A stretch of 64,000 nt of DNA from Takakia lepidozioides (taxonomy: Eukaryota > Plantae > Bryophyta), in NCBI GenBank assembly GCA_030704615.1, contig CM060733.1, positions 38,874,001 to 38,938,000 of the forward strand, read 5' to 3'. Positions 5,914 through 61,860 of this stretch are shown piece after piece. Position numbers and translations under genes: made by a program. Position 1 is the stretch's first letter; every line of letters begins with the position of its first letter. Under the pieces are notes generated by a model, which worked only from the letters and a program-made list of their open reading frames with translations, was not told the origin of the DNA and did not search any database.

Positions 5914-6144
5914 AGATTGATGTCTTGCCATAGATTTAAACCTATCCACACCAACGGAGCCCCAAACCTTCATCTGCAGAACACCCGTGCTCTTTTTATT
6001 GAGATAAAAAATCAGCACGCTCGGCACCTCTAGCTCACCACTGGTCCCCATCCTGGCTCCCTTCCGATAAGCGTACCTTGTTCCGCTTCTTTCACTTCAG
6101 GCCATCATTTGAGAGCAACCCTCTCAGCCTGCCTCCCTCTCTGG

Positions 6145-7108: not shown

Positions 7109-7143
<35 letters not shown>

Positions 7144-13800: not shown

Positions 13801-15825
13801 GAATGCTTTGTAACAAAGCAATCTGAGAATGGAGGATTTGGTGCCCAAATTATCCACGTAGAACTCTGCTATGTTCTGAAGAGCTCTTCTCTGTTTCATT
13901 TTTTGGAAGAAATACTTATACATTTTCTAACCCTTGGCCGACCAATTAATCCCTGCCTGCATTTGGATCTTTTGTTCCTGAAGGAGTTGGAATTTCCCAA
14001 GGTTGGAGCGCGCCTCAAGGTATGTCTGGAAAGTATGTTCATCGCAAGTGTTATTCTCAATGGCTTTCTGGCAAATGCCCAGGCATTTTTTAAGGGCCAG
14101 GATTCATCTTTTTTGCGCCGCCAAGATCTCCCTACTTAGGTCTTGACTGGTTTTGCAAGAGGCTGCTATTTTTGCCTGGAAATTGAGAATAGGGCAGGTA
14201 GAGCTAGTCCCTGCTTGCGACCATACTTTTTCGAGCGATGCTTTGAAGGTAGGGTTCTTACGATGAGGAGAATTTAGCTTGTAAATGCCTCTACCTCTCC
14301 TCTGAGCAAATGGTAAGACTATGGAGGCTGCCAGTACAGCGTGACCGAAACCTTGGGTGATGGGTTCTTGGGGCCATAGCAGGGCTCCATTAGACAAGGC
14401 AAGCGAGAGGTAGATTCTATCTAGACGGGCCATAGAGAGGTCATTAAGCTGTCGATTGTTTGACCAAGTGAACTGAGGGTTGATGGAAGAGGGATTGTTG
14501 GGTTGTTTGGCAGGCTCAATGAGGTTGTGGGTTTGAGTAAGAAGGAGCCAGGCCGCTTCTTCTTCAGAATGAAGTTTGGGGGAGGTGTTTCCCAACCTAT
14601 CCACTTCACTTTCTACCATATTGAAATCACCAGCAAGGATCCAGGTGTGGATAGAGACCTCATCTGTCATGCATTGGTTGATTTTACTCCAGAGGGTTGT
14701 TCTATCAGGGGTCGTGTTAGGCGCATAGATGTTAACGAAGCCCAACGGCTCTGTACGTTTGAGAGCTTGACAGAGCAGAACTGTACTCTGCCTGGCTCCC
14801 AGATTTCTTCTTTGAAAATGAATTGTTTGAGCGAAGGGGCCAGCAAGATAGCCGTTCCTCCTCTAGATCCTTTGTAGGAGGGTTTCCAAAGTGCCGAGGA
14901 GAGAGGCCAAAGGTGGTCTGAAAGAGAGGCAATTTTTTGTTGGTTGAGCTTGTGTTCTTGGATAAAGATAATAGAATCTGATTGCTGGAGGGGAGCCAGC
15001 CAAGCTCTAAGTTTTGTTTTTTTTATGCTAGAATGCTCAGAACCTATTCCCCTAATGTTCCACGATGAAAGACTAATCTTCATATGAAGCAGGGGACAGG
15101 CCGAGCGGGCTGGACTCGAATGATGACCTGGAAAAGTGAAAGCGAAACCTTGTTCTTTTGCCCAAAGGAAGGAAGGAAGGCACCCAGCAGTGGCGCATGG
15201 GAGCTTGAAGCGTGCATCGGCTTTCTTAGCTCAATGATCAAGACCAAGGTATCAGAAGAGGACTTGGCTTGGCATCCGGCGGCAATAGTGGGAGCAAGAG
15301 AGAGGTAGGATGCACTCTAGCATGGATACAGCAAGGTCTACCTGAGAGCTGCATAAAGAAGTCTGAGAGAAGGATGAGTTTGAGGAGGATTGGGGTCTCA
15401 ACTGGTAAGGGGTCAGTCCCCATGAAAATGGAGAAAGTTTCTTGATTGGCAGGGAAATTAATGGAGGGCAGAATCTTCCAATGATCTGGGTAGGGAGAGG
15501 TGTTTTGGAGACAAAGAACTCTACATCTGCTGGGGTTAGTAGCAGATTTGAAATAAAGTACAACAATGGAGCCGTGATGAGAAGCCTTCCTTCAATGTGA
15601 GATGGTGAAACAATTTGAAGAGTCGATGGAGCTGCATCGCTCTCTCCATGAGGCACTGGCGGGGTTGGCGTTGGAAGAAACTGGGTATCTGTCGTGAGCC
15701 CGATAGAGCCTTCTTGACGGGATGTAGGAGGAGAGACCTTTAACGAGGAGAAGTGAGTTATCTGAAGATCCGAAGAGGAGGAAGAGGAGAGCTGACCAGA
15801 GTAGTACTTAGTGTTTTTCACATAT
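10850..15825 (-). mobile_element. L1-type LINE retrotransposon B, 5'-truncated, same family as A, tail-to-tail with A
   Basis: Minus strand shows SWNIRG, AGDFN, KSPGIDGMPVEFY, GQAGFIKGR, DFENAFDRVDW, RQGCPLAPFLF, SMFVDD and zf-RVT CRCC...SLEHC. A-rich tail at 10850-10891. Confidence 0.92.
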
Positions 15826-20790: not shown

Positions 20791-21683
20791 TCATCCCCCA
20801 ACACCTGCTGAGCCGCTCCATCTCCTCATTAATGTGCTCATCAAGACAATGGCGACAGTAGTGGTGCACTGGGGGTTGCTATTCCATGAGCTCATGAGCG
20901 GGCATGGCTCACCCATGAGCCGCAAAGTATCACACTTCGAATTTCGGCAGATTTTTTTCGGGCCCAAAACTATAAAATAATCAAAAATCGAAGATTTCCG
21001 CGCTCATGCTGGAAGCACTCCGCTCATGAGTACCAGTGTACGCTCATGACTTGGAGCCCAGGCTCATGGACCGCTAGGCCAGGTCATAGAAAAACTGAAT
21101 TCTGGGCAATAACGGCACCGAAATTATCCCAGAGGCAGAGACGCAAGCGGAATTAGGATCCGGGTTTGCAGACTCCGAAAACGCAATGGCGACCTATAAC
21201 CGTGGATAGTACTGTTGCAGAAGTACATGATGGTTGGGTATAACGGCGCCGTAATCGGGCACAGGAAAAGAAATAGCCGACTGAAGGCTCGGGAGTGAAG
21301 CCAACAACGGTGAAAGTAATTGGGCTCCACCAACCAAATACCCAGAGTGCAGGCGATAACGGCGCTGAAATGGGCCCCGAAAACCAAATACTCGGTTGAA
21401 GCCACCGGAGTGCAGCCGATAACGGCGCCGAAATTGGGTCCAGAAACCAAATACCCGGCTGAAGGCTAGGGATTGCAACCAATAACGGCGCCGAAATTGA
21501 CCTACGGAAACAAAATTCTCGGCTGAAGCTTCCGCACTCCATCCAATAACGGCGCCAAAATTGGGCTCCGGAGAGCAAATACCCGCCTTACGGTAAGGGA
21601 GGCCTTGCTCTCATTTTGCTCTTCACTCTTCTCTGTTGTGCCCATCTCCTCCCTGCTTTGAGTTTGTGCTATGTCGTGAGGCC

Positions 21684-22247
21684 ATGTCGTGCCCGAATCA
21701 CATCTATCGACGCCAGACGGGAGTCATTTTCCCGAAAGCACACGACATCATTGTTTTCCTGGATGTTTACAGGGACGATCCTCGACTTGTCCAGCTGAGA
21801 GCAATGGAGTTTCTTCCAGGATTGCACGATTCTCCTGGACCCCGGCTGGGGAGCAGGTGGTTCCTACGCATCATGGACCTGGACTTTCCGCATGAGTGGG
21901 AGCCGAATAGATCACGCACAGCGTTACTGTATCGCTGGAATTGTTGCGAGTGGACGTATGATGAGTGCATAGGTGAAAACTTTACGCGTGGACGGACTGG
22001 CTCGGAAAGTGGGGACATTCTCTTCAGTTATGAGGATGAGGAGGAGGGGAACACAGGGCCCACTGTGAAAATGTCCTTCTACCAAGGGGGCGCTATCGAT
22101 AAACACGACATCCTCGTTAGTTTCAACCGGGCGACAGAACCACTGACATTTTGTTCAAATATAGGCACCCGGTCACTCAGGAGGTCCTTGAGAGGCCAGT
22201 TAGAGTTCCTTTTCTTGGGCGAGGGGACCATAGGTCTTGCATGCTAG
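21684..22247 (+). CDS. 187-aa uncharacterised protein (family X, copy 1)
   Basis: Intact ORF starting at gccATG. Homologous to 39050-39613 through WxLRIxDxDFP, RTAxLxRWNCCxWT, IGE, GDI and VKxSxxxGGxIxxxDIxV. Confidence 0.75.
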   Translation: MSCPNHIYRRQTGVIFPKAHDIIVFLDVYRDDPRLVQLRAMEFLPGLHDSPGPRLGSRWFLRIMDLDFPHEWEPNRSRTALLYRWNCCEWTYDECIGENFTRGRTGSESGDILFSYEDEEEGNTGPTVKMSFYQGGAIDKHDILVSFNRATEPLTFCSNIGTRSLRRSLRGQLEFLFLGEGTIGLAC

Positions 22248-34693: not shown

Positions 34694-35447
34694 TTAAGGC
34701 TTCTTGATTGATGAATTTGCAACCTTCATGAGGGCACTTTTTGCGCTGAATCCTACTGTCTGCCAATACGATACCAGCCTGTCCCAATGAGCTTCCTTCA
34801 GATGCGCAGGCCTCCCCTCGCCTGCCTTGTACAGTGCATGGATCTCGTGTCTTTGGGTTTTCAAGGCAATGCCAAGTGTCTTCCTCATGTGCTCATAGTC
34901 AAGACCACGTGGCGTGTACGCAAATGTAGAGTTTAGAATCATGTATATTTCTTCAATGACAGATTCATCCTGCGCTGCAATATGCATTGACATGTCACAC
35001 AAACGCCACATCTGGCCTTTGAGGGCTGCATGCCAGGTATTGCGTGCTGGTCCAATGGGCTCTCCAGCTTTGTCAACCGGAAGCACTTGAGGGGGGAGTC
35101 CATCTTCCTCTCGCGCATCATGGTTTCGGTTGCCTCTCTGCCTCTGCCCACTGGCACGCCTGTTCGCGCCGCCTCAAAGCATTAGCTCGGTCCTTCTTGG
35201 TCATAGGGATGTCTTCCTTTGCCTCCTCAGGTGGTGGGGCAGCTAGGGGTTGCCATGGGGAATGGGGGGCGGGACGGTATCGCCCACCGTATGGCCCAAA
35301 AGGTTTGTATGGTGGACGTGTAGATGCCGGGTAAGCATGTGGGTCTGGGAGGTAAGGGGGAATAGGCGGAGGAGAATGGGCATATGGCTGCTGTGGGTAA
35401 CCACCTGGAGGGGGCTTGTATTGGATGTGCGGGTTGTAAGGCCCCGC
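34694..35447 (-). pseudogene. CACTA/En-Spm TnpA-like (Transposase_24-like) fragment with a Pro-rich N-terminal region, interrupted by an LTR
   Basis: RPAHLKEAHWDRLVSYWQTVGFSAKSALMK resembles the PxxxxxxxWxxLVxYWxxxxxxxKS motif of plant En/Spm ORF2 proteins. Confidence 0.6.
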
Positions 35448-36380
35448 TGTTAGAGGACTGTCTGGGACTTAGACACTTATAAGGGATCTGTAGGGTACCC
35501 TTAATTTTTGCACAGACTGAGACCAACAGGAGCCTTAGGGGGGTGACCAGCGCACTTTAGAGGGGGGTTACACAGCCCGACACAGCCCATCACAACCAAC
35601 ACAGCGCGTCACAACCGACACAGCCACACAGCCAAACACAGTCGCACAGCCAGTCACAGCCCGACACAGCCTGTCACAGTTTCACACAGCCAGTCACAGC
35701 TTGACACAGCTGTCACAACCATAGGGAACGGATAGCAGGATAGGGAACAACTGTGGGGAACAACACCTGTGAATGGAACATGTTAGTTCATGGACGACGG
35801 TTAGTGAGGAAAACGGTTAGAACAACGGGTAGGAAGATAAAACTAGGAGCAAGAGAAAGAGAGGATTGATTCTTGAGATCACTGGGGGGGGGGGGGGGGA
35901 CTTCGGACATCACTAAAGGAAAATGAGACAGAGAGCGTATCTCTGAGCAGAAAGAGGGAGAGCACGGAATATGAGGAGGATGATCTGTTGTTACTTGATG
36001 AATGCAAACTATAGAATTGTAATGTAGAGTAGATTAGAGACACCATGACTTTAGCCTGATACTTGATAGATATTAATCTGATACATACTTCATACTCACA
36101 CTGTGTAGAGAGACCTGAGTGAAGCTGTGGAATGAATGGATGAGTTGATGGAATCCGATAGATTGATGAAGCAAACTGATACTTAATTATCAATAGTAAG
36201 GTAGCCTGCTAACATGAATGCGGGAAGGAAAACAAATAGGAAACACCCCCGTGATACACTAGCTGTAGGTTATGACTGATTGTTCTGAGCGGGGCTGAGT
36301 ACTTAGAGATTTCCAACTCTTCTATCTTGGAGTTTCCGCCTCGGATAGCGAAGGGATGGGTGAGTAAAAGCCGCGCGACA
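35448..36380 (+). mobile_element. Solo LTR (TGTTAGAG...GCGCGACA)
   Basis: Bounded by TG and CA, and an inverted homolog of 36621-37638. No adjacent PBS or PPT, and no clean TSD (cccgc versus tttgc). Confidence 0.7.
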
Positions 36381-36620: not shown

Positions 36621-37992
36621 TGTCGCGCTGCTTTTACTCACCCATCCCTTCGCTATCCGAGGCGAAAACTCCAAGATAGAAGAGTGGAAATCTCTAAGTA
36701 CTCAGCCCGCGCAGAACAATCAGTCATGACCTACAGCTAGTGTATCATGGGGGTGTTTCCTATGCGTTTCCCTTTCCGCATTCATCTTAGCTACCTTTGG
36801 CATTGATAATTAAGTATCAGTTTGCTTCATCAATCTATCGGTTTCCTTCACTCATCCATTCAATCCACAGCTTCTCTCAGATCTCTCTACACAGTGTGAT
36901 TGTATCGTATAAGTATCAGATTATGATTTATCAGGTATCAGGCCGAAGCCATTATGTCTCTAATCTGCTCTCTCCATATCACTACAGCTTTGCATATACA
37001 AGCATCTATTAATCCTCTTTTCTCCTTCATCGTGCTCTCCATCTCTTGCCTCCGATCTCCGCTCCTGCCTGACTCCGAAGTCCTCCTCCGAATAATGATC
37101 ATCCCATCCCCTCGTCATTCCCCGTTTCTTCCCTTTATCCTCCTATCCGCGGTTCTAAACCGTTTCCCTCTCTAACCGTCGTCTGTGAACTAACATGTTC
37201 CCTTCACAGGTGTTGTTCCCCACAGTCGTTCCCTGTCCTACTCTTCGTTCCCTATTATCGTGACAGCTGTGTCAAGCGGTGACTGGCTGTGTGTGGCTGT
37301 GTCGGGCTGTGACTGGCTGTGGTGGCTGTGCCGGGCTGTGGACTGGCTTGTGGGCTGTGTCTGCTGTGACGACTGTGACGGACTGTGTTGGCTGTGTGGG
37401 CTGTGTGACGACTGTGACGGCTGTGTTTGCTGTGTGGGCTGGACGACTGTGACGGCCTGTGTTGGGTGCTGTGTGGGCTGTGACACTTTGACGGGCTGTG
37501 TCGGCCTGTTGACGACTTTGTACCCCCCTCTACAGTGCGCTGCTGTCACCCCTAGGCTCCTGTTGGTCTCAGTCTGTGCAAAATTAAGGGTACCCTACAG
37601 ATCCCGTATAGTGTCTAAGTCCCTACAGTCCTCTAACATTACCCCTTCCCCCCCTCAAAAGCCTTGTCCTCACGGTTTACTGTTTTCGAGTAGCAAACCT
37701 TTGTGAGTGAGCACCTTGTTGACGTTGATAGTTTCGTGGTGGGCTGTGTGTACGAGCCCGAGGTCTGTCTCGCTGGTTGATGGAGATCGGTTGATCACTA
37801 CCTGGATAAGTGAGGCCTTTTCTGGAGGCTATATCGAGGTAATCTTTTCCGGTATAGGAGATCCCCTTTGTTTCTCTCTTCCATCTGAATTGCATAGTCC
37901 TTCTCCCATGTCAAAAGAATTCTGTGAAGAAACATTTGTATCAGAATCCTTCGTTCTCTGTCATGTGTTTTAATTTTTGAGACTTTTTGTGG
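36621..37992 (-). mobile_element. 3' end of a minus-strand Ty3/Gypsy element: 3' LTR (36621-37638), PPT and a short internal stretch cut by the gap
   Basis: On the minus strand, GAGGACAAGGCTTTTGAGGGGGGAAGGGGTAA (polypurine tract) immediately precedes TGTTAGAG. The LTR contains (CACAGC)-like degenerate microrepeats at 37260-37510. Confidence 0.75.
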
Positions 37993-38492
37993 NNNNNNNN
38001 NNNNNNNNNNNNNNNNNNNNNNNNNNNNNNNNNNNNNNNNNNNNNNNNNNNNNNNNNNNNNNNNNNNNNNNNNNNNNNNNNNNNNNNNNNNNNNNNNNNN
38101 NNNNNNNNNNNNNNNNNNNNNNNNNNNNNNNNNNNNNNNNNNNNNNNNNNNNNNNNNNNNNNNNNNNNNNNNNNNNNNNNNNNNNNNNNNNNNNNNNNNN
38201 NNNNNNNNNNNNNNNNNNNNNNNNNNNNNNNNNNNNNNNNNNNNNNNNNNNNNNNNNNNNNNNNNNNNNNNNNNNNNNNNNNNNNNNNNNNNNNNNNNNN
38301 NNNNNNNNNNNNNNNNNNNNNNNNNNNNNNNNNNNNNNNNNNNNNNNNNNNNNNNNNNNNNNNNNNNNNNNNNNNNNNNNNNNNNNNNNNNNNNNNNNNN
38401 NNNNNNNNNNNNNNNNNNNNNNNNNNNNNNNNNNNNNNNNNNNNNNNNNNNNNNNNNNNNNNNNNNNNNNNNNNNNNNNNNNNNNNNNNNNN
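37993..38492. other. Assembly gap (500 N)
   Basis: Run of N. Confidence 1.
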
Positions 38493-40076
38493 ACGGCATC
38501 CTTGAAAAAGAGTAGCGGAGTACGCTCAATGACAGCAGCTCCCGGATGGAGGAGGAGCAGCGCGGTGGCTGGAAAAAGTTCAAGCTAACGCTGCAATTCC
38601 TCACAAACACTTCAGGGCACATTTAAATTTCCCCCCTACAGGATCCTGGACCGATGAAGATTGGCTGCTGCATGAATGTAGCCGTTTCTGTTTCCTACCC
38701 TGCCATGCAAACTATGGGCAGTCACTGCCAGGTGGGCCGATAGCCACTGGACACGACGAAGTCCATCCCCTCTTCGATGTAAATGCGGCGCCGAATTTCC
38801 ATCCGGGGGGATGGACTTCGGTGGCAGATCTCAAACTATAACTTGTTGATGAGAAAGATGTATGGCTTCATCCACCGCTACCGTGATGAACACGTTCCAC
38901 CTCCGTCGGTGGGTACGTGTGACCCAGATGCTCCATTATTGGAGGCCGGACTGCTCTTCCGCTTCGTATCATTTCCAAAATCTAAGGGCTTCGTAGCTGT
39001 CCGCAAGGTCATCGGCATCCAAGTCGTCCTCAGGTCCTCCTTTGCAAGGATGCCGTGCTTCCGGAACCGGGACGACTGCCCCTTTGGAGGCATCGATTAT
39101 GCAATGTATTCGGCCACATCGGGAGACATTGTTATCTGGTACACAGATTACACAGAAGATACTGGTTCGATTGTGGAAACATTGGTGGCTTTTGAGTATA
39201 TCGTAGGCCACTACGCCTTCGAGCGGGGTGACGATCTTGGTCTGAGGAGTCCGTGGCTCCTGCGCATCCTCGATTCCGATTTTCCCAGCTACGACGGTCA
39301 CCCATGCAGAAGAAGGCGCACTGCTATGCTGTTGCGGTGGAACTGCTGCCACTGGACGTGGGTGGACTCCATCGGAGAGACCTATTCTCCTCGAGGAGTG
39401 CGCTCCTCTTCTCCATTGTATGGGGACATTCGCATTGGTGTAGACGACGAAAACGTGAAGATTTCCATATTCGATGGTGGTATGATTGAAGGGCAAGACA
39501 TTGTGGTGAACATCACTAGGGGCGGTACAACGGCTGCAATCGACTTTACATGGAGGAGCCCCATGACTCATGAGCTAGTTCTGAGAGCAGTCGAAGTCCC
39601 ATTGACAACGTGACTTGTATTCAGTAGGCACAGGGCTCAAGATTTGATGGCACAATCAGCACAGTAGACGTGCTTCAAATGCAATTCATGTGGATCAATA
39701 AAAACCTCATTGTGCCCTCTTTTTATTCTATTCTGTGTCCATCGTTCCGAGAATGCGTCATTGCTCATTTCGTTTGGGATTGGGAGTGTGGGTGAATTTT
39801 GCAAATGGCTGGTAGGCTGAAATGGGCCCCCATTGTACAGAGCAGTACCACCCTACCATTCGCGAAACATTGCCTTTCAATATATAATTCTAAATAACAT
39901 TGCCGAACCTCCTTCATCGGGAGGTCCTTCTCCCCCTATGACCGTGGCACCCTAAACCCTATTCCCGCGGACACTCATTTCCGGAAAATAGTGCTGCTCA
40001 TGTTTTTTTCCACACTTACGACTCTGCTCATGGCTCATGCCGCTCATGGCTCATGGCTCATGAAATAGCAGCCCCC
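38493..40076. mobile_element. Terminal part of a second element of the same TIR family
   Basis: Ends in GCTCATG repeats plus CATGAAATAGCAGCCCCC, whose reverse complement matches the 20871 terminus at 16/18. Contains GGCGCCGAATTT at about 38788 and family-X copy 2. Confidence 0.75.
39050..39613 (+). CDS. 187-aa uncharacterised protein (family X, copy 2)
   Basis: Intact ORF (the frame is open from 38783). From the ATG at 39050 it has the same length as copy 1 and shares its motif blocks. Confidence 0.75.
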   Translation: MPCFRNRDDCPFGGIDYAMYSATSGDIVIWYTDYTEDTGSIVETLVAFEYIVGHYAFERGDDLGLRSPWLLRILDSDFPSYDGHPCRRRRTAMLLRWNCCHWTWVDSIGETYSPRGVRSSSPLYGDIRIGVDDENVKISIFDGGMIEGQDIVVNITRGGTTAAIDFTWRSPMTHELVLRAVEVPLTT

Positions 40077-40139
40077 CTGGAAAAATGGCGCCGAATTTCT
40101 TTTTTTTGGGCCAAAAACTGACTAAGTCCCAACATGTCC

Positions 40140-41640
40140 TCGTTGTCATGTTTGCAATGTGTGCGTGGGATGCAAATTCATAGGAACAAACTATCGTTGG
40201 AGATGGGGGTTGCATGGACTGCCCGGGTTGTTCCTTCAATCTATTTAGTGTTTTGCGGAGCTCACAGGCTTGTGTGCATTGCAAAAACAAACAAACGTCT
40301 TTGGTTCGGGTAGAGCATTCTCGCATCATTTGCTCGTTGGTCTCCAAACCATTCCTGCTAGAAGAATGCTTGGTAAATCCATCATGATAAAGTCCACATG
40401 ATCAAAGAGCGTTTAGGCATTCTCAATTCTGGTGAGCATCCATGATGCTCCCACACATACATGGCATGTTTGCAAGGGTGGTGAGTAAAAAAATATTTCG
40501 CAGGGATCCGCTTTGGATGATGTGAGTGTGCACCTGCTCACGACGTAGGCACATTCCAATGCAGAGGCTTGGTATGTTGATAACGTCTAAATGGATGCAA
40601 TGGATAGAAAGGATGGATACAATGGATGTAACACATCCAGTCTGCATTCCCTGGAAATGGCTGATCAACCCGCGGTAATAGGTGACACCCGCGGAAATAG
40701 GCCCTGTATGCATGCTGACGTGGCGTGAGCCTGTGCTGGGCTCACAGAATAGCACCCCCCGATTCCGGCATACCCATTTTGGCCAGGACTTTGTGCAGGA
40801 AAACCCAATCAATATTGTAGCATAAGAGGAGCATAAGAATTGTCAGGGGTTGCTCCGAGCATTTGGCCTCATGCAAGACCTCGTTGATTAGGAGCAAATT
40901 GTCAAGAATCATTATGCCTCTAAGGAATCCTGTTTGCTCCGGCCTAATAACACGGGAAGGAATAGTGTCGCGGCCCTTCGCCTTGAGGGCAGGGGGTCGG
41001 GACACAAAAGGGACTGCCCCTGTGGTGGGGGCAGTGGCAATAATAGATACGGGGGCTGAAGCACCCTTGAGTGCCCAAGGCACTCAAGGAGGCGGAGGCG
41101 CTCACTAGGTGGAACCCTGCACACTGGGTTGCGGTGGGGGTGGTTCCACGAGGGGTGGTGGTAGCTTAGTGGGACTTAGTGGGGGTGGCAGAGGACTCAC
41201 CATGGGGCGGGGACCTTGTGGTGGGAGTCGTGGGGAGTCTTGGGACTCATCACGGTCCAATGGGGCCGTGGTGGGTGGGCCAAGACTCACCGCAACTCAC
41301 CACCGGGAATGGAGGGTCTTTTGTGGTGGTTCGCCATAAAAGGACGGTGTTGTTTGTGAAACCCCCATGGACAATCATAGAAATATATATAGGGAGTAGT
41401 AACCCTGAGAACGGTGCAAGCCCGTTGGTGACCAAAAACTAGTGAGTAAGCGTGCGAGGCGGGAAACGACCAAGGTGTGGGGAGCTGTTCCGGACTGCCA
41501 ACAACCAAAGGGAATTTCCACTAGGCCCAAATTGAGAGAGGGTCTTGTGGAGGAGCAAAGGGGGACCGTTATGTCCCGGTGAGGCAGCCGAAGCTCCAAG
41601 TTGGCCCGACGGCCAGTTTGGGAGTTAGGTGCGCGCATCA
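40140..41640 (-). mobile_element. Heavily deleted LINE remnant (ORF1-like Pro-rich part fused to an RT fragment)
   Basis: VIRPEQTGFLRGIMILDNLLLINEVLHEAK...IDWVFLHKVLAKMG corresponds to LINE RT subdomains 2-3, with internal deletions. Confidence 0.7.
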
Positions 41641-41694
41641 AAGCGAGTAACTATGACTTGAAGGGGAGATTACCGAAGTGAGGTGCGCGACACT

Positions 41695-41706
41695 TGGTAT
41701 CAGAGC
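41695..41706 (+). other. Primer-binding site (tRNA-iMet) after an LTR-like end; orphan remnant
   Basis: GCGCGACA-CT-TGGTATCAGAGC. The GCGCGACA terminus is the same as that of the LTRs at 36380 and 36621. Confidence 0.7.
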
Positions 41707-42819
41707 TTAGAGTTCAGTATGATCGTCCTTGAGATCGGCCTCATCATGGGGTCGGGCAAGCCAAAGCGCAAGCGGAACGCAACATGGTTTACCTCCAGGC
41801 CAGCTGCCTCCCCAGCAACAACAATACCGGGTATTCCGAGGCTGGGATGCCGGGACAGACATATCTAGCTCTGTATACAGCAGGCTGTTTGTTTTTGTGA
41901 CACATAGGCTTCAAATGGTGCTGTTTGCCTGCTACTTGTGTTGGTATGAGATCCCAAGGCCTCAACATTATTTGGTTCATAGCCACATTGCCACGTTGGT
42001 TGTGTTCATGGGCGCTCAGGGCGCATTTGATACCATCTACTGTTGTTGACTTGCAGCGGCAGCCGGACGGGATTTTGGAAATGGGGGATGGCATTGCAGG
42101 GTTGGCCAGCAACATAGGTCTCGAAGCAAAGCGAGCAGCAACCATGGTGACTGCTGCTGTGGCAGCTCGGACACGTGCGGGGTACGATGCCACTTTTATG
42201 CAGGTCGATTGCTGCCGTGTGTCAGCCCTCAAGGTTGTTTAGGGTTGTCAAGCCCTCAGTAGCAGTAGCAGTGCCACAAGTAGATAGTAGCCTATTTTTT
42301 CTAGATAACTTTTTAACACAAGTGTTTTGGTTGATATGCAGACATGGATATGAGAGACAAAGTGGAGGCACGCGGCTTTACACTCTAAAGGAGTTGGTGC
42401 CTGGTTCGCTGGACTTCAAGAAAGTGACTGCTGCCATACCTCTCTTTAGCAGTGTCGTTGAGGTCCAGAATCCCCTAATCTGCTTCCGGGGAACTGATGG
42501 GTTTGTGTGCCTATCCCTCCCTCCCCTTTTCTGTCATAATACACCGTGTCAAAGGAATACAATTCGAGTATGAAGACAATCTCAGGTTCTAAGTCAGTAC
42601 TGATTCAATCACCTGTCATCCTCTACAGCTGGCACATGGTTTCTTATGGCATGACATATAACTAGGATGTGGCCCAGATTCTATGAACTCTGGTTTACTG
42701 GCTGCACAATATTGATGTTGAAAGGTTTGATCTGGGGTATAGTACCTTTCCTATTGACAAGAGAAAAAGTTCAAAAGAGAAGAGACAAGAGAAAAAGAGT
42801 GTGTTTGTATTGGAAAGTA

Positions 42820-44697
42820 CCTGACTCAACATTCACCGGCTCTGTAGTTGAATTTGACACATCCTCAAGCTCTGATACTGCATTTGGTACCCACCTGCTT
42901 CCCTTACGAGTGCATTTTGCTCTCCATAGCTCACTATGTGCTGCAGCACTGGATCTTAGGGAAGCTTCACGTCTTGCGGCTATCGCTTCCTCGCCTCGCA
43001 ATGTATCAAATTCTGATTCGTTTGTAAAGTTCTCTTTGTTTCTAAATCTGTGTGCGATTATCCTGTACCAGTGCTGAAACGTTTGAACTAGTGGACTTTT
43101 CTTATTTTTGCCACCGGAGTGTTGTTTGTGCCTTTGATAGGCAGTCTTCGCAGCGTGATGCGAGTTCTCCATGCCCTGGCAGGACCACACTGCAAGGCTT
43201 CCATATCAATCTACAAAGTACGGAGCATGTTGAACAAGCACATGCTGCCAAAGACACAAATTTTGTTAGTTGTGAGCTCACAAACAACCAAATCGATTTC
43301 ACCAAATTCAAACATAAATTGAAATGACGGGATCCAGAGTTCACTTGCCATGTAATGTGTAACATGATGCTCTCCAAAACATTTGATGTAGAGTCGGCCC
43401 CATTGTTCCACCTTCTCTTTGAAATCTGCAGCCGATTGATCGACACCAAATCTGAGACCATTGAAATAGGGCCGCAGTCGATCCAAGGCATGCCACTGCT
43501 CCAATCTCTCTCTTCGTGCTGCTCCATTATTCATTCTGTTCTTTTCTGCATTCACGACATCCACATATAACTTCCGAGGCTCTATGGCAACAGGATTGTC
43601 CTTGAAAAGCTTCAATGCATGGGCTCCACTAAAAGAGGGCTTGTTTGGGACATTGTTTGCCCTCCCAGACAAATCTTCATCCTTAAAAATTTGAACATTC
43701 CCTCCATGGGCACCCGTGAGTGACAACAACTTCTGCATCTCATCAACGGCCAATTTTTGGAGAGCTTTGTAACGAATTGTCCAAATATGAATGAAATGCA
43801 AGTGAACAATCTTTTCAATCACTCGGTTGAAAGCATGTAGGGTGCATATGTGGACTCTGTCCAGTGGTATGGGCAAAATGGGCTTCCAACGTCCTGAAGT
43901 TGCAGCCCCTGTGAGTGGTTGCGCTGCCACTTTCCTTGAAAACAACCCTTCATTCCAAGTGTACTTGGTTCGTTTTTTTATGGCTGCTTGGGCTTGTGCA
44001 GTGGTGCCCACTACAGGCTTCGTGCGTTCTTGGTTGCAGTAGATGCAACTGTGTAAGCTATTTGCTCCAGCTCCCAAGTTGTACATCACTTTTATTGTCT
44101 TCATATCTGCCGCCATATGCCATTCCACCTGAAAGGATCCAATACCAGGGACATCCAGTGGCTGTCCTTGCTCTTGTGCTTGAATCAACGCAGGAATGGT
44201 AGTTTGCGAGAAGACCCAACTCAATGTTTCATAGGTTTCCCGCACCACTTGGAATGAAGCGATGGGCCAAATTTCCCTCTCTGACTGAACTGAGAAGAAT
44301 TGTTCACTGTTTGGCTCAATCGTAGTGTCCAAAGCCCGGTTCATCAGTGTTAGAGACACTCTCTCCATCTTTTGAGCGTGTACAATTTCAGCTGCATCTT
44401 GATGACAAAAATGAGAGGATGTCCCTGCAATTCTGAAACCAAACACAGCCAAATCCTCAATGCCCAGGTCCTCAATGCCCAGGTGTTTAATCAATCGATT
44501 CCTATCAGAAGCTTTACCCTACATCTCTTGCAACACTACAAAATTAAGGTGTTACCTGCGGGTGTGATGCCGTAGAGCTCGACCATTGTGCGCTGCACTT
44601 GTTCCACATCGACAAAGATGGAATTATTATGATTGAGTGCTATTCTGACAGGCTCTTTGCTCTTTGACTTGGCAGTGGCTTTGCACTGGTACAGTGT
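42820..44697 (-). pseudogene. RAG1/Transib-like DDE transposase, spliced and 5'-truncated
   Basis: Exons at about 44697-44556, 44432-43349 and 43244-42820. Motifs: LIFVIK/DAAE (first Asp, with a frameshift), AADMK, ANSLHSCIYC, CTLHAFNR, FSGAHA, and THYM|HVLVQHAPYFVD*YGSLAVWSCQGMENSH (catalytic Glu region). Confidence 0.78.
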
Positions 44698-45152
44698 CTG
44701 GAAAAATGACGCCGAATTTCCCTATTTTGCGCCGAAAACTGGCTAAGTCCGAACATGCACTGGAAAAATGGCGCCGAATTACCTGTCATGAGGGGACCTA
44801 TAGCCGCGGAATTCGGCACCATTTTTCGCCAGAGAGACCTATTACCGCGAAATACGTTGCCGTTTTTTCAGGTTACGGACCCTACTACCGCGAAATTCGG
44901 CGCCATATTTGCACATGTCGCTGGGAATTGGCATGAGCGGAAGACGAAATATCATGAGCACAACTGTCAAAACTGCAATTTTCCCTTCAAGGGGCCGAAT
45001 AATATATTTGTTTTTCCTGACACATTGCATTAAATTATTGTTTTTTATTGTTTTTTATTTTCGAAATTTGTACTTCTGCTCATGAAAACCGATTGTCTTA
45101 CTACTCCGCTCATGCCGCTCATGCCGCTGATGCTCATGAAATAGCAAACCTC
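44698..45152. mobile_element. Terminal part of a third element of the GCTCATG/GGCGCC TIR family
   Basis: Ends in CATGAAATAGCAAACCTC (17/18 identical to the 28266 terminus), preceded by GCTCATG repeats and several (G)GCGCCGAA motifs. Confidence 0.75.
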
Positions 45153-46773
45153 ACTCTCCGTAGTGTAAAGTCTAACCCTAAGAGCAGATCATGCTTGCAG
45201 TAGATGAATACTACTAGAAACTTACAAAGTTAGAGTTTTTATATTGATATGTGGACAAAATATGGACATTATTAGGCAAACTTAGTGTTGGTATCATGAA
45301 ACTGTCATATAGCTGATGAATATGAAGATAACACCTATCATGGTGAAGTTCATTAGGTGAAATCACAGGGTTCTCCCTGAAGGGAGGATTGGGAATTGAA
45401 AACATGGATTAAATGTGTCGAAATCCTGTTTATTGCTGCATGTCAGGTGGAAACTTATTTGGAGGCCATAGGGGGGCCATAGCCTGATCAATGGAATAGC
45501 AAGATTGATTTCTCCTATGCTGTCCCAAATACTCAGAAAATGCATGCTCCCCACAAATATCATCTGTCCTTGTTTTTTGCTGTCAGTGCCTGAACGATCT
45601 GGTAACACTTGATTGTCTGTGTCTAATATCTGCTTCCAAATTTGCTGACTCCTCAAACTCTTCAAGAGATACTTCCGATGCTTGAAGCAGACCCCCCTTA
45701 TTGGAAATTGAAATTGAAAGCACGTCAGGGATGGAGTGCTTCATGGGAAGTTCAAACTCAACACTCAATGCACCTAACCATGTTCCCACAGTACAGCTGG
45801 AGATAATGATAGAGAAGAGGATAATGGCACATAAACTGGAGACAATTTTGGGAAGGAAGTGACCCTTGATGGCTCTAGCAGGCACCCAGCAGGACAATGA
45901 TTCCTTCTTAAAAGGAAAACTTACTTTCAGGGAAGTCAAACCTGGGGCAACTTTCCAGACAAGAAGACCCTATGCAACATATCTTCTTAAGCTACGGAGT
46001 CATTTATTAATCTCTTGGGTTGTCAACAAGTTTAGGGGTTTTTTGCTCATCCAGATCGGCCTCTCAGGCATCCACAATATCATGCATTGCCAGAGGGCCA
46101 AGTATATTCACACTTGCCTCATTGGAGTCCAAGCATCTACAGAGTAGTGTAAGAATGTCCAAAACTGACCTAGCCCACATCAAGGAGCAAATGTGAAGAC
46201 ACAGGTTGAAGGGCATGCATTTATTTTGTTACATGATCGAGTTCAGACCAAGCAAACAGCCACACTCTCTCTCTCTCTCTCTCACACACACACAGTATGC
46301 TGCATATGTCTGCTCTCTTCTTGTCTCTTTGGATTGGATGTCAACCACAAAACCAAGGAACAATAATGGAAGGTCCTGGTCTCTTTACCACAAGGGGACT
46401 GTCGTGTCCATGGGTGTGACATGTAACTTAGTGGGGTTGCTGGAACATCACTGCCACATTGACATACCCACGATTTGGCTGCGGCAAGAATGCCAATTGA
46501 GATCATCTTAAATACCTCCAGTTGCCAGTCCAGTCAGGCTTGTGTTTGCGACCAGCAAGAGTTCCAGCTCAATCTTCCAAATGCAAGAGCTATGACAGTG
46601 CAATAATGAGATTGTCACCCCAGCTGGGAGGGATTATACCTCAATGAGTATCCGTTGCAAGGCTACAATTGTGTGATGGTAAAGCATAGCATTTGTGCTG
46701 CTTCCCCACTGAAGCGTCCACGAATGGAAGTTGAAAGATGTGTTGATGTTGAGTATACAAATTTTGAACCGTT

Positions 46774-48402
46774 TTAATTATCTTTAGGAAGCACAGCACC
46801 CAGCACAGAACTCACCAAGCCTGTCAAAAGCAGTGTGAGCTTCAAAAAATACTCGGACATGCCTCCTACGGTTGCCCACTGCAATTTGGTTGAGCCCTCC
46901 ACTCTTGCAAAGTCCCCATCTCTGACATTATTGAACCCACCAGCGACCCATGCGAGCTGGGTATACCCAGCATTCTGAAGCTCCTCTATGGCCAGCAGAG
47001 ACCTGTCGATCAATGTCTTCATAAGTTTGTCATCTCCGAATATTTATGAAAGATGGTAGTACTCCAAGATTTTTCCAACTAAGAGTACACAGAAACATAC
47101 ACATTCGCACGCGCGCACATGCAGACACCATCCACTCACCTTAAACCCTCGCCACATGCCACCAGCAACCTCTCCTCTTTCCTGGGGAGAGCATCCTCTA
47201 CTTGCTGCACAAACTGCTCATTTCGGGCAGTCAATCTTTGACCCAGCCACATTCCACCAAAGCCCAACTGAATCCATTTCCTCAATAGTGTCATGGCACT
47301 GGTGTCACTGTCCTCAATGAAGAGAGGAACATGAAAAGAACCATCCACATAAGCCTTTTCCCACTCCCACATTGGGCGAACATCTAGCAATTTGTAGGGG
47401 TTGTTCTCAACAGAGAGGAGGGGTTGTGCATCCTTGGGAGATACTAATTGAACCTCACCCGACCGCACCATTTCTTCAGCATCCTGGGTAATGCAAAGAG
47501 CCAATTTCCTCCTGTTTAGATAATGTGGACCTCACACTTTGACAACAACATGCACTTACTGTCTGTTTTCTGAGTTGCAATGACACATTTTCAACAAGCG
47601 ACCAAATCTCCTTTTGGGAAACCCTGTACAACTTTATGTGAACTAATTTATTTGGATCTCACCGCTCTGGTTAATTTTCACATTACTCATTCTGAACATT
47701 TTTTTGCCTTCTATAATCCGTTCTACTTGAGCTGCAACTTGTCTCCAACCTCCTCTTACTGGGTGGGTGTTCATCTCTCTCTCTCTCTCTCTCTTTCACT
47801 CTCTCTCTAAGACAGGATCGGCTAACCGAAGCTATTGGAGGCTCTGTACCGAGACCATCACAGACCTGCGTGGAGGCACAATGCAATGACATCCATGCTG
47901 TGACATCTTACGCAATCTATAAAAAAAATTGTGATCCGGCCCAGCTAGTTCTCAGTGTCAGTATGGAACTGTGATAGCTCTCTCACAGCCAATGTCTACC
48001 AATTTCGCAACACTGAGGTTGACGCTACCAGGTCTCAAGCGAAGTGGCGTTGGATGGCGAGTGCAGGTATTCACCACAACTCCCATATGGTGTTCAACTA
48101 CGATCGTGCGCACCTACACAGTAAGAAACAAGACCTATCACGTCCGAGAGACTCCCAAAGGACCCAATAGAACAGAAACAGAACCAAAGAAGGAAGAGAG
48201 AGAGCGAGACCCGTAGTGAGGCTCTTATAGCTATCGATGGCCACCGGAAATTGCGTCCCTGGATTCGCAATGCGGGTCCTCGGGGAAATTTTCGCTTCCC
48301 TTGCAAGTGTGCTCCTTTAACAACATGGACTGATGATGGTGGCCTCGTGCACAACCCAGCAGGGCATGGGGTGGGTAAAGGCCTTGTCAGCACTGACCTC
48401 AT
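46774..48402 (-). CDS. STR10: Rhodanese-like domain protein 10 (plastid-targeted sulfurtransferase-like); exons 48402-48211, 47483-47140, 47002-46774; 254 aa
   Basis: GT-AG introns preserve the frame. Motifs LLDVRPMWEWEKAYVDGSFHVPLF, LLVACGEGLRS, LAWVAGGFN and ATVGG. Exon 1 resembles a transit peptide. Confidence 0.9.
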
Positions 48403-51112: not shown

Positions 51113-51959
51113 CGAGAGGACCGCGGAAAAATACCAGAATGACCGAAATATTCCGGAGAATATTGTGCACCCATCATGAAAAGGGGGAAAGCATGCCCTC
51201 AGATCTATATCCTTGGATATAGGCCCTCTTTCTCTATAACAATACCATGTGCTCATGGTTTAGCAAGCATGAGCCTAGGTTCACATTTAGTGGGTGAAGT
51301 GGGAGCCGAGCTCACATGCTCATGGGGCTAGGCTCACACCGTAGCTACGCTGCTACCCTATCGAGGTGTTTGTTGCAATCTTCAGCAAACAAACAGCCGC
51401 CATTGCATTCATTTCGGGTGATTCTTCTCATTTCTTAGTAATAGTATATTTGTAAGGCTATATAAGAGCCTTCAATTGTCATGGGTTCATCTGACTTGCC
51501 ACCATCCACGCTTGAGCACTTGGCTGTTGAAGCGGCGACATCGCAGAATGAGCTAGGGGGCTTGGTGCGTCCTTCCTTGTGGGGGCTCTCAAAGACATGT
51601 TATATCTGAAGCGACCACCCAATGTGCATGTGTCTGCCTTCCCCACACCAGGTAACTTTAGATATTTTTGGAGGAGACATGTTGTACGAATGTTGGGGTG
51701 GGGTGATAGGAAGAAGGAGAGAGACCCGTTAGTATAGTGAAATCCTAAAATGTCAATTCCAGACCGCTTATCGCGTAAGGAAGGTAAAAGGCTTGAAGAG
51801 GGAATAAGTTGCTTTGGAGGAGAGAGGGGGCGATCCTGCTTTCCGTGTACAATGGCCAATAGGTTTCGTCTGTAGCAATCTCACAAGAGGATTCCTTCTC
51901 GGCGTATTAGCTTTTCTACCCATGGGACACAATGGTTTTCGTTGGCAGAAATGTCGATG

Positions 51960-52300
51960 TGTTGAGTAGGAATCATGACTTCGGAAGTGTGCACGTAAGT
52001 TGTGGCATCTTGTGGATGCCTTTCTAGAAAGGCTTTATGCACACAACGTTGTGCTAACCCCACTTTGTCATGAAGTCTGTAGGCACGAAGCAAGCCCCCC
52101 CATACCACCATGCCTAGGTCCATTGGCAGTTTGGCAATCAAATCGTCTGCCTCATCCAATATCCCCGGGCGGCCAAGAACCTTCACCATGACCAGTAGTC
52201 CCACATGACTGCAAGCAAATATAAGTGGAATAAAGGTGATACTGTCTGATGTATGATGCAGTTCATGTTTTTTGAATGAGATGAGCATGGACTTGCTTGC
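51960..52300 (-). pseudogene. PLS/E-class PPR protein fragment
   Basis: DSITFIPLIFACSHVGLL, MVKVLGRPGILDEADDLIAKLPM, VVWGGLLRAYRLH and PQDATTYV, with internal deletions. Confidence 0.8.
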
Positions 52301-52439
52301 CCTTCCCCAGGTATCCAAGGTTGGCAAGAAATCCATGCTGGGTAAATGCCAGGTCTTTTGCTTGCAAAGCAGGGGTTGGGGTCATTTGCAAGTTTTTAAG
52401 AAAATTAAAAAATCCATTTTTAAAAAAAAAAATCCGAAT

Positions 52440-57457: not shown

Positions 57458-58192
57458 ATCAGGATTAGATCTTGCTTGGGCGGGCTTCTATTCTTCCCCT
57501 CCATCTCTGTACTTTTTTCATTACCTTGTACTTGTAGTTGCCAAAGCCTCTCTTGGTGGAGGCCAGTCAGTCCGGGGTTTTGGGCTGGGATATTCTGCAG
57601 GATCAGCGTTGCTGCTGGATTTTGGTGTGGGGGTGTTGATGTTTTGATTTCTTGTGTTTGGATCCCCCCCAACACCTGCATGCTTGACTGTGCGCCATGT
57701 TGGTTTTGTGTGGGCGCTTGCTTTCATAGGGATTAGGCCGGATTTGATCACCGGTCAATCCTAGAGTATGCTGTCGGTGGTGAGGCTGGAGTGATGACCA
57801 GCAAGACCACCAGTGTTTCTTCTATGGTGAGGCTGGGTTGATGACCAGCCAACCATAGGAGTTCTTGCGGTGGATGCAGGTGCAGGTGCCCTGAGCCATT
57901 GGGATATGACCCTTAGACTGCAACAGGTGCCCACCCGTGTCACTATTAGATTAGTACTAGAGCCTTATAGTGTCACGTGGAGGAGGTGCACATTGTGAGT
58001 GTCATTACGGAGTTACCCAAGGGTTTTGAGGGAGTACGGCTACAAGCAGTGACAGTGAGAGTGGGTTCACAAGACGAGGTATTCGGTTCAGACCACCTTC
58101 ACCGCCACCCCTCAACTACTGTAGAGTCAGACACAGACTCGGAGGCTTCATCAACAGGTGTGCACTTTCATTCGCCATTGTTGTGGGACGAC

Positions 58193-59250
58193 ATGGAGGA
58201 GATGTATGGAGCTACCAAGGGGCCTCGTAGGTACTCTGGAGCTGTGGGCACAATTGAGTTGGATGACTTTATCTGGTGTGATTTGCAGCAGATGCGCAAT
58301 CCACAGCTATTCACCCCATTCATGGCGTGGAAGGGACTGTTCCAGCATTTGGAAGGCCCGCCTATGGACGATTACCACGAGTTCAGGCGAGGACATGAAG
58401 CAGAGATTGAGGAGTGGAGGATGTATTGGTCACCTGACTACGTCTCCATTACTCGAGGCACGACGCGACCAGTAGCTGCATCAGTACCAATAGCTCCCAC
58501 TGCCAGCACTAGTAGTGGAGCAAGTAGTGCTGGTACTTCTGCAGGTGGTACCAGTTCAAAAGGTGCTACTACTCCTCCTGCCACGACTACAACACATGTG
58601 CCTAGATTCAACCCGGTGGTGGAGTTCTTCCAGGAGTTGCGGAGGAACTACCAAGGTGTACGGACAGAGAAGCTGCGAAGTTTGCAAGACTTCCAGCGCA
58701 AACCCAGTGAGAGCCTGCGAGAGGCGTACACTCGTATGAGGCGCTTGATAAGTGTGACCCAAGGGGTTACTGAAGCTCAGGCAATCCAGTTTTGGTATGG
58801 AATTCTGGACAAGGAGCTCAAGAGAAGGGTGCGAGATGCAACCCTGTTACAAGCAGCCCAACCCACCTTAGCAGATGTGTTTCTGCTGGCTGAGCGGATT
58901 GAGCTCAACATGGTGGAGGAGCGAGTTGTTACAATTGGATTTGGCAAGGACATGCCTGTACGGGGCACAGCTGTCAGCCCACAGGCACAAGGACTGCCCA
59001 ACAGCGTGGTCAGGGGGGCAAGGTTGCCCAGCCCAAGTTCCATGGAGCTTACAGGGGACCTCAGGTGCAGAGGCCCGTGGCATCTTTTGCAGGCCAACAG
59101 CAACCAGGGGTGATATGTTGGATATGTGGAGGACCCCATGTCAAAGAGATTGCCCAGAGAATGGCAGAAGGCCGCCACAAGCACAGCCTGCACAGTTGCA
59201 GTGTGGGCATTGTGGCAAGTATGGGCATGGAGATGCCTAGTGTTATGACT
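58193..59250 (+). CDS. Gag (retrotransposon gag domain plus two CCHC knuckles, frameshifted)
   Basis: FFQELRRNYQG...LQDFQRKPSESLREAYTRMRRL; CWICGGPH (~59117) and CGHCGKYGH (~59202). Confidence 0.8.
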
Positions 59251-60169
59251 TGCATCCTGAGTTGCGCCCAGGCCAGTTCCAAGGGAACAATGGTGGCCGG
59301 GGGCAAAATGGACCAGCCCAGAGAGGACGAGGTGGTCGGGCACGAGGTGCAGGCCAAGGGCAACCTCAACATGGCCAAGGACGCGGAGGTCAGGGTGTTG
59401 ATCAAGGCATGGCCAACCGGCTTCAGTAGCTAGAGCAGAGGCTCGCTGCCATGGCTATAGCTCAGGCGGTACCGGCTCCCAGGCGGGATGGTCCACCTCC
59501 TGCTCCTGAGGGAGGAGATATGGGAGGCATGGGATTTATGTGCGGAGCAGCACTACCACTAGAGCAGGTGGAGTCTGCTGCAGCCGTGACTCGAGGAGCA
59601 GCACGAGTTCCTGAGCCACGAGGTGCAGAGGTGGAATTGGATCCACAGCGTGGGGAGGCAAGCCGTCAGGCAAGGCTTCCTCAGTCATTCACATTGGCGG
59701 AGACTGTGTCGACGCCATCCATGGCACCTAGTTCTCGCCCGACTGTTACCGAGGCGGAGGTTACTATGCCATTGGGGAGAGCTACACGTGCAGCATTGAC
59801 TCCTGCTGCCAAGGCTAGTGCGGCCGGTGTGTTATTGGGGGCAGCCACCTCTGTGTGTCAGGCCCCACTGTTCTCGGCAACAATGATTGCGACGCCGGGG
59901 GTGAGACCAGCTGCAGTGTTCAGACTAGCAGCAACACTCTGTGAGAGTGGGGAGGTCACTTCATCTTCTGCGGAGTTAGTAGAAGATGTAGTGGCAGAGG
60001 GATCCTCGGATTTGAGGGTCAAGACTGCCACGGCTGCGCCATGGCAAGTTGCAGCTGCCAGGTTAACGGAGCTGCCAGCTAGGCCAGCCATTGAGCGCGC
60101 CATGGTGACACCTGGAGTTGTCTTGTTAGACAACCAGGGAGGCATTTTCACTTTGAGTGGACCGGCAGA

Positions 60170-60550
60170 CAAGAAGTACCGGCCACTGCGGGTCTTGTTG
60201 GACTCAGGAGCTCAGCCACTGATGTTGGGCAGAGCTGCTATTGCAGGTTTGGGCCTCATGGAGGCGGATATGGAGCCTTGTCCTTTCCAGATACAGACAT
60301 CTCTGGGAGGATCAGAGCAGGCTCGCGGCATGACACGGCATCAGTTGGCTATTAGACTGCATCCGGATCATCCTGTAGATGGCTCAGTGATGCAAGCCAA
60401 GGCCATTGTGACAGACGCGGTCTCTTACGATGTCCTCGTTGGTGGGGCAGTGTTATACCCCATGGGCTTCACCCTGGATTTCTGGGAGGAGTCAGCATCC
60501 TACAGGCCTGGATGGCAGTCAGGGGAGGTCGCCGTGCACAGCTCCCTGTG
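60170..60550 (+). CDS. Retropepsin aspartic protease domain
   Basis: LRVLLDSGAQPLML active-site motif at about 60190 and the YDVLVGG motif. Confidence 0.85.
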
Positions 60551-60900
60551 ATATTCCATTGGGGTATTGCAGCTGGGGGTATTGCAGCTGCCCAGCGGGG
60601 CAGATGAAACACTAGCCGCTTCACAGCTGCAGTTAGTTGGCCTGGAGAGTGCTGGAAGGGCAATGCCCATGCAGAGGATGTGCCACCTCCAGCAGAGCAG
60701 GATGACATGCATGGTACGGCGGAGTTGCCTGCCATGGTTGCTCACACTCCGTTGTGGGGTACGAGCAAGGATTTGCAGCAAGCTGCTGATGGACGGGTGC
60801 AACAAGCTTGGGTAGAAGCTTTTGTACCGTCAGGAGAGGAGGAGAGTGCGGTGATTGCACCAGGGCCACCTCAGTTGTCGCCATTGGACACCACACCTCT

Positions 60901-61860
60901 GTGTGGCAGCGGCCGGATGAAGGCATTTGCCTTCTGGACTTGTTTGGCGGGATCAGCACCGGATTGGCTGCTGTGCTACAGGCAGGTGTGCGGGTAAGGC
61001 GTTACCTGTATATGTGGAGAGGGATGAGACTGCACGACGCGTCTCACTGCGCCATGTGGCTCAGTGGTACAGCAGTACCCTGACTTGTTGCCGTGTCTGC
61101 AGTTCGTGGATACCAACAAGCCTTGCCAGCAGACATTCCTTGTTGGGGGGGCGCAAGATTTGGAGCAGGTTGGCTCCATTGATCTGATAGTGGCAGGTTG
61201 GCCCTGCCAAGGGCATTCATCAGCCGGGCATGGCAATGGATTGCGAGACTCGAGGACGGGTCTGTTTTGGGAGATGGTGCGGATTTTGCGTGCTTGCAGC
61301 TTCATCAAGCTGTATCTCCAGCATACATCTTGGAGAATGTACCACTGATGGGTGATTCTCGGGCCAGGGTGATGGCCAGTGTGCATCAAGTCCGGTCGTG
61401 GCTTGGGTCAGCAGTATTGCTGGATGCAGCTGTAGTGGGGTCACGGGCTCATCGTCCACAACTATGGTGGACTAACTTGATGCCACCCGCACTGCTCAAG
61501 CGTGCATTTGATGGGGTGCAGCGGCCAGCACACCTCCCGGTGGATGGCATTTTGGACACAGGGAGGCAGTCTCAACGTGTGAGACACGATGACCGTTCGC
61601 CTTTGGCAGTGGTCAACAGGGTGGGTCAACCACGAGCAGCATTACCTACACTGCTCAGCTTCCAGGATCCCATGCTTTTCGGGATGGTGGACCTGGCCTC
61701 CTGTGGGATGCCAGTAGTGTAGTGGAGCCTAAATGCCGACGACGAGAGGGGCTAGGGGGTTTGTCAACTAGGACCACGCGTGCCTTCTCTTTCAGAGGCA
61801 TACAGTCGTCAGGTGGGTTGGGGGGCAAAGCAATGGATTCTCAATTGCTTGACTGGATTG
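60901..61860 (+). CDS. C5 cytosine DNA methyltransferase domain within pol (frameshifted in this assembly)
   Basis: Motif I LLDLFGGI (60931), II YVERD, IV DLIVAGWPCQG (catalytic Cys at 61205), VI YILENV (61333), VIII GSRAHRPQLWWTN (61450), and IX/X remnants EPNAD (~61725) and GQAMD-LNC (~61825). Confidence 0.92.

Follow-up and report, generated by a model that had tools for sequence, protein, structure and literature searches.

A relic transposase gene in Takakia lepidozioides from a large family likely to lie in the RAG1/Transib branch

RAG1-type transposases and their plant record

RAG1 is the enzyme that assembles antibody genes. The biochemistry of RAG1 and Transib, as set out in the available part of PMC10629977, comprises dimeric binding of the ends, excision by nicking and flank-hairpin formation, and strand transfer with a short target duplication. 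The wider CMCT clade is marked by C(2)C and H(3-4)H motifs, lying after the second Asp and before the Glu of the catalytic triad, and by CA..TG ends (accessible sections of PMC12730594), and one of the CMC lineages, Plavaka, is reported from algae and moss, an earlier example of a lineage that algae and early land plants have both retained (excerpted text of PMC13519894). Plants seem free of Transib according to the available portion of PMC1131882, and Tao et al. (2022, PMC9435367) list 39 sequences resembling Transib from plants, of which those with a named source come from angiosperms (Capsicum, Juglans, Silene, Hordeum, Corrigiola and Arabis).

Here we describe a transposase pseudogene in a 64,000-nucleotide stretch of Takakia lepidozioides DNA (the window). 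This dead copy derives from a gene that probably encodes the enzyme moving a cut-and-paste DNA transposon; the element would belong to an old green-plant lineage, and the intact enzyme is predicted to be RAG1-core-like. With the RAG1 core (mouse and zebrafish; PDB 4WWX, 6XNY, 6DBO) and the lancelet ProtoRAG protein RAG1L (6B40), the family shares a predicted fold over 450-500 residues (Z 15.9-17.7), a D-D-E triad with a long distance between the second Asp and the Glu (D2-E), a zinc set of a C2 motif and H-x4-H, and an end in two parts set about 23 nt apart; as in ProtoRAG, some relatives carry a convergent second gene. It differs from both in its identity of ~14%, its coiled-coil N-terminus with no RING seen, the lack of a detected RAG2/kelch gene, an end starting CAT, its own introns, and its plant and algal hosts. 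The likeness to Transib (HzTransib, PDB 6PQX/6PQN) extends to the core fold (Z 11.8-15.7), a single transposase gene and a bipartite end starting CA, whereas the family's proteins of ~850-900 aa show no sequence match to Transib and are accompanied by partner genes in some relatives, and the left end conserved in six relatives does not start CAC. The D2-E distance, 257-277 residues in four relatives without intron read-through, is closer to the 253 of RAG1 than to the 206-214 of Transib (values from the available portion of PMC1131882).

A doubly truncated pseudogene and its neighbourhood

The pseudogene comprises three exons on the minus strand, running from 44680 to 42771 of the window, and is flanked by repeats on both sides:

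44556..44680, minus: remnant of an upstream coding exon (pre-RNase H region), matched by tblastn to P0014 143-203 and to P0060, broken at 44680
44433..44555, minus: intron 1, GT..AG, 123 nt; in several close relatives intron-like sequence stops just before the same Glu codon
43349..44432, minus: main exon with the first Asp, second Asp, CxxC, C-T-L-H and a helical zinc-binding region
43245..43348, minus: intron 2, GC..AG, 104 nt, at a position common to 12 relatives' loci
42771..43244, minus: last exon with the H-x4-H zinc pair, a TGA, the third catalytic Glu and C-terminal helices, matched by tblastn to P0001 755-889
41780..42770, plus: continuation of the repeated unit on the downstream side, marked by a depth exceeding that of the unique flank, variant contigs and a loose end at 41780
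44681..45165: repeat of very high copy number that adjoins the 5' break and lies outside the transposase element; it has subterminal repeats and, at 45165, a CACTA-type end
40965..41779, plus: LTR-retrotransposon piece (LTR, what we take to be a primer-binding site, short internal part) of very high depth, abutting the downstream break, with loose ends at 40965, 41690 and 41779

Both introns lie where a first-pass annotation of the window had placed them (44555-44433, GT..AG; 43348-43245, GC..AG), and the motif order it had read, from IFVIK (44412), the first Asp codon (44398), the second Asp (44107) and CxxC (44047) in the main exon to the third catalytic Glu (43169) in the last, is reproduced once both are spliced out. 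Intron 2 is backed by relatives: among 26 sequences surveyed (25 metagenome loci and the window), 16 show both flanking motifs, and these comprise three intronless sequences, 12 with a GT donor at the exact position, 11 of which have an AG acceptor, and the window with its GC..AG pair.

The coding sequence carries more damage than the single frameshift, TGA and 5' truncation first listed, all of which are present. The frameshift falls at about 44397, at the first catalytic Asp, leaving IFVIK and this Asp in different frames, and the Asp is followed by Ala, at a position where Glu stands in 67 of 68 aligned rows. The premature TGA occupies 43208-43206. The break at 44680 removes ~360 N-terminal residues relative to full-length P0001, including the region that in the P0001 model falls on the RAG1 NBD/DDBD, and a second break, at 41780, cuts the unit further downstream. 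The window copy is a dead, doubly truncated relic, ordinary in itself, and the interest lies in its family.

Contigs from three or four sequencing runs, which represent one sample and, in addition, a plant metagenome, were aligned to the region. In run X1 the unique flank has a depth of ~60, and the transposase and the downstream kilobase mostly 90-530, with variant contigs; sequencing depth is no copy number in itself, and it is the raised depth together with the variant contigs that points to several related copies. Contigs of other copies have four more bases at the frameshift, and the TGA is missing from roughly half of the depth. These contigs also run past both 44680 and 41780, with sequence differing from the window beyond 44680, and both truncations therefore belong to the window copy or accession.

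We weighed the high-copy repeat at 44681 as a possible end of the element itself and discarded this reading, since coding sequence follows past 44680 in other copies. The same non-autonomous repeat also occurs at 40033-40136 and 38757-38820, with GGCGCCGAATT subrepeats in both orientations. Its position bears on a very improbable alternative, in which the gene is no longer mobile, having been domesticated or captured, and was copied by segmental duplication or by the neighbouring CACTA-type repeat. The window offers this reading some ground, since it shows no ends or target duplication, the gene abuts the repeat and few copies are indicated; it is opposed by the coding sequence, rather than repeat, that other copies carry beyond 44680 and, at the level of the family (the window copy being dead), by the many divergent subfamilies within one assembly, the many broken relatives and a shared terminal motif.

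In the downstream part of the unit, convergent ORF pieces lie at 41901-42242 and 42151-42573 (plus strand); they have no Pfam match and no counterpart in the relatives' loci and are of a third, unassigned kind beside the two partner genes of the relatives. Within them, a short stretch at 42340-42500 (plus), also without a Pfam match, presumably looks like the beginning of a catalytic domain of PARP type.

The wider surroundings hold exons of a spliced rhodanese-domain host gene at 46774-47531 (minus; Pfam E 6e-4) and, around the copy, plant-type retroelements. Retrotransposon gag and protease ORFs at 57971-61722 (plus) are followed by an ORF piece (61183-61722) without a Pfam match at E 0.05, whose motifs we take to be like those of C5 DNA methyltransferases, so that this is possibly a retroelement carrying a methyltransferase. 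Two decayed LINE-type elements, 64-70% alike, lie in opposite orientations at 5800-9000 (plus) and 12300-15435 (minus); two similar-looking plus-strand ORFs of 216 and 276 aa without a Pfam family lie at 21597-22247 and 38783-39613, the second in high-copy DNA. A long inverted repeat (35567-36380 / 36621-37409; ~830 nt, 79% identity, 240-nt spacer) precedes an assembly gap, a run of N at 37990-38490. Two further minus-strand segments have no fitting Pfam match; we take 34694-35173 to resemble a CACTA TnpA-type protein and 51881-52381 a PLS-class PPR E motif.

The family and its predicted RAG1-type core

Searching proteins with the main exon at E<=1e-3 returned 97 proteins of similar length and six longer ones, with 73% identity to the best relative and 39% to full-length P0001 (E 5e-64), and the family amounts to 316 representatives at 50% clustering; a match of this breadth places the main exon far beyond chance. 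Full-length members have ~850-900 aa with a coiled-coil N-terminus. In the 103-row alignment the key residues are strongly conserved (Asp 67/68 and 91/95, Cys 95/99 and 93/101, His 101/102), and the last-exon motif with the third Glu is present in 19 of 25 loci. The marks of the CMCT clade are present, namely C(2)C with H(3-4)H in the stretch from the second Asp to the Glu, and a known end starting CA, as are the D-D-E triad with a D2-E distance above 200 aa and the C2H2 zinc ligands; by inference, the triad would correspond to D600/D708/E962 of RAG1.

The full-length relative P0001 was modelled from the 103-row alignment (pLDDT 72, pTM 0.65), and the model shows the RAG1-core fold (DDBD, RNase H, ZnB, CTD). 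Foldseek gave 49 matches at E<=1e-3, and among the matches listed all are RAG1, lancelet RAG1L or HzTransib (E 4e-11 for RAG1, 4e-8 for RAG1L and 1e-6 for Transib, against 0.016 for the P element). Structural comparison with VIA-align, carried out on this relative, likewise placed RAG1 best, with Z 17.7 over 448 aligned residues (rmsd 4.5; model 244-846 on RAG1 460-1008), followed by RAG1L at 15.9 and HzTransib at 11.8-15.7, and the next transposase at 8.4 (ISCth4, P element and Hermes, 5.5-8.4). An unbiased comparison with 48,161 chains reproduced this order; its top match had Z 17.6 over 501 residues, with an rmsd of 7.6, and extended as far as RAG1 residue 405. The structural match thus spans DDBD to CTD and extends into the NBD, at a structural identity of 14%.

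In the ESM atlas a RAG1 cluster ranked first (0.95, 201/256 features), and the neighbours with a family assignment are RAG1 clusters. Pfam searches of 42 diverse members returned RAG1 as the sole recurring family, in two of the 42, at E about 0.003, below the cutoff, and over profile positions 553-593 in the last-exon region. By sequence, and with two profiles, the PDB gave no match to RAG1 or Transib; Pfam on the window pieces gave no transposase family, Transposase_21, DUF4218 and Plavaka included. A viral fold library gave no match at E<=1e-3, and motif searches of viral contigs for a CACTA transposase to serve as a fold control yielded 0 and 33 matches, none of them a transposase.

The first-pass annotation had called the gene RAG1/Transib-like from its motif order. 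Motif order alone is insufficient, since the same C2/H2 motifs recur in EnSpm, Mirage, Chapaev, Plavaka, ESTA and Lanisha (accessible sections of PMC12730594), and the assignment instead draws on the predicted P0001 fold, the ESM features and the weak Pfam signal. The fold searches returned no CACTA, Chapaev, Mirage or Plavaka structure; RAG1 and Transib being the sole CMCT structures to appear, the best fold match may only reflect what is solved. With sequence similarity only marginal and the fold comparison confined to solved members, membership of the RAG1/Transib branch is likely rather than proven.

The family could instead belong to another CMCT lineage or form one of its own, either akin to Chapaev or a new superfamily alongside Plavaka, ESTA and Lanisha. 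The match to RAG1 would then arise only from RAG1 and Transib being the sole solved members of the clade; we judge this placement rather unlikely. We take the contexts of the second Asp and the third Glu to resemble those of Chapaev transposases, which counts in its favour, as do the lack of a sequence-level match to RAG1 or Transib chains and a left end starting CAT. Moreover, the C2 and H motifs and CA..TG ends are common to all CMCT lineages, and ESTA likewise matched RAG1 in HHpred (both from the accessible sections of PMC12730594). Against this placement, EnSpm and Plavaka Pfam models matched none of the 42 members at E<=1, compared with two for RAG1 (25 of 30 families listed), the ESM neighbours with a family are RAG1 clusters, the fold match runs from DDBD to CTD and into the NBD, and the bipartite end with its variable spacer of 21-23 nt has an RSS/Transib-type layout. 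We retain the RAG1/Transib branch as the likely home of the family.

Element ends, partner genes and origin

Upstream of the gene, several relatives carry a motif consisting of CATTAGG, 21-23 variable nt and the 12-mer GCCYTGTAAGRA, which was seen by eye in four of 25 metagenome loci and extended to two more by a subsequent scan. It is thus found in six of the 25 loci, and in six of the eight that include the gene start together with 400 nt or more of upstream sequence; all six come from one assembly and none belongs to the window's subclade. Their transposases are only 31-57% identical and the DNA 5' of the motif is unrelated, and in one pair (L015 and L017) DNA similarity begins exactly at the motif's first base. 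The motif occurred in 0 of 120,000 shuffles, a generous test because the pattern was derived from these same loci; it gave no match in IMG/VR and 13 stretches in the 596 billion bases of GTDB, none with a relative. We read it as the left end of the element, bipartite and RSS-like, and an RSS-like left end common to six divergent relatives would be new. It is absent from the window, whose own ends are lost.

CAC-starting ends, which the earlier reading had led us to seek, were not found, the conserved left end of the six relatives starting CAT instead, and partly for this reason the family should not be classed as a Transib proper. A scan of 12 loci for terminal inverted repeats and target duplications returned chance pairs only, the search for an inverted CATTAGG downstream in the six loci gave no right end, nor did any contig, and no target duplication was seen in the available contigs.

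Two kinds of partner gene accompany the transposase in relatives' loci:

L001:2200-2704, L002:1675-2226, L015:3633-4436 and L012:2610-2888: histone H3-like ORFs, in two separate subclades
L005:3261-4884, L009:3045-4962, L014:3290-5120 and L016:3467-5347, minus: convergent ORF conserved across loci

The histone-fold ORF lies just downstream of the transposase, on its strand, in L001, L002 and L015 (Pfam E 7e-34 to 3e-18), and L012 has the start of an H3-like tail in the corresponding position; the tails are divergent, and L001 and L002 have an insertion in the fold. The convergent ORF encodes ~600 aa with a C-x2-H-x3-C motif. Its L016 version received no Pfam, ESM, PDB or fold assignment and no kelch match; its model is mostly helical (pLDDT 43, best Z 5.7), Dachshund and Ski (Z 4.7 and 4.4) being a weak lead. 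No RAG2-like or kelch partner gene was detected in the relatives' loci or in the window.

By analogy with RAG1 and Transib, the transposase would act as a dimer that contacts the inner 12-mer with an NBD-like arm and the terminal CATTAGG with its core. It would cut at the CA end through nicking and the formation of a flank hairpin, and the element would insert with a short target duplication. The partner genes, H3-like or convergent, might assist the element in dealing with chromatin or silencing and not play the part of RAG2, although this role is a guess.

Organism names accompany three of the 30 clusters looked up, comprising two Adiantum nelumboides proteins and one marine cluster. The fern members lie on contigs of 0.6 and 5.7 Mb, and the Adiantum gene models P0294 and P0226 fuse a family fragment to unrelated sequence, a retrotransposon integrase in P0294; the family is therefore hidden in fern annotations as chimeric hypothetical proteins. 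The marine cluster consists of transcript fragments of 62-70 aa that are identical in Pyramimonas (prasinophyte) and Prorocentrum (dinoflagellate) data, and so one of the two algal labels is likely contamination. No relatives were found in IMG/VR or GTDB, and a broad-profile protein search returned just two proteins. In a quick, midpoint-rooted tree of 53 rows without an outgroup, most rows having no host label, a 44-row clade (support 98) contains the window's subclade and both fern proteins, and the marine cluster lies outside it with other divergent rows.

The two origins proposed by the first-pass annotation, an overlooked plant lineage or horizontal acquisition, fare unequally against these data. 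Recent transfer of an animal or fungal Transib, or contamination, appears to us highly unlikely. Transibs do transfer horizontally, and the 39 plant sequences show Transib-like DNA in plant assemblies (PMC9435367). However, none of the 30 clusters looked up has a named animal or fungal relative, the family is deeply diverse internally with probable algal members outside the 44-row clade, and the Takakia copy sits amid plant-type repeats beside the spliced rhodanese gene, with one sample covering flank and gene. An old green-plant lineage fits much better: the family is extensive and deeply branched, its introns are conserved, and it includes fern and algal members. It would probably have passed vertically from green algae into non-seed land plants.

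The angiosperm Transibs in print bear equally on whether the family is already catalogued across plants. In the supplement text of PMC9435367, where line breaks could hide a match and representatives alone are given, three family motifs and CATTAGG are absent, and neither text nor supplement contains a fern or named bryophyte term. The protein displayed in the available part of that paper is of canonical insect type, and while both sets are Transib-type transposases in plant assemblies, the angiosperm sequences appear to be a different, insect-type family. A literature search, which covered sources other than Repbase, Dfam, subscription papers and bioRxiv supplements, found no paper on this transposase family, which is apparently undescribed.

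More tentatively, green plants may possess their own ancient branch of RAG1-type transposons, from prasinophytes to ferns, with RSS-like ends composed of a CAT heptamer, a ~23-nt spacer and an inner element, possibly a partner end with a shorter spacer, and with H3 variants or else a convergent partner recruited instead of RAG2. If so, recently copied intact members would represent a RAG2-free, spacer-dependent recombinase outside animals, and would offer natural enzymes for testing the origin of spacer-length recognition and of the CAC rule without RAG2. A native and deep family with the complete RAG1-core fold and an end built of heptamer, spacer and inner element would also give firmer grounds for tracing the RAG1/Transib lineage, and with it the design of RSS-like ends, to early eukaryotes, and its intact members likely mobilise a type of element that plants were long thought to lack.
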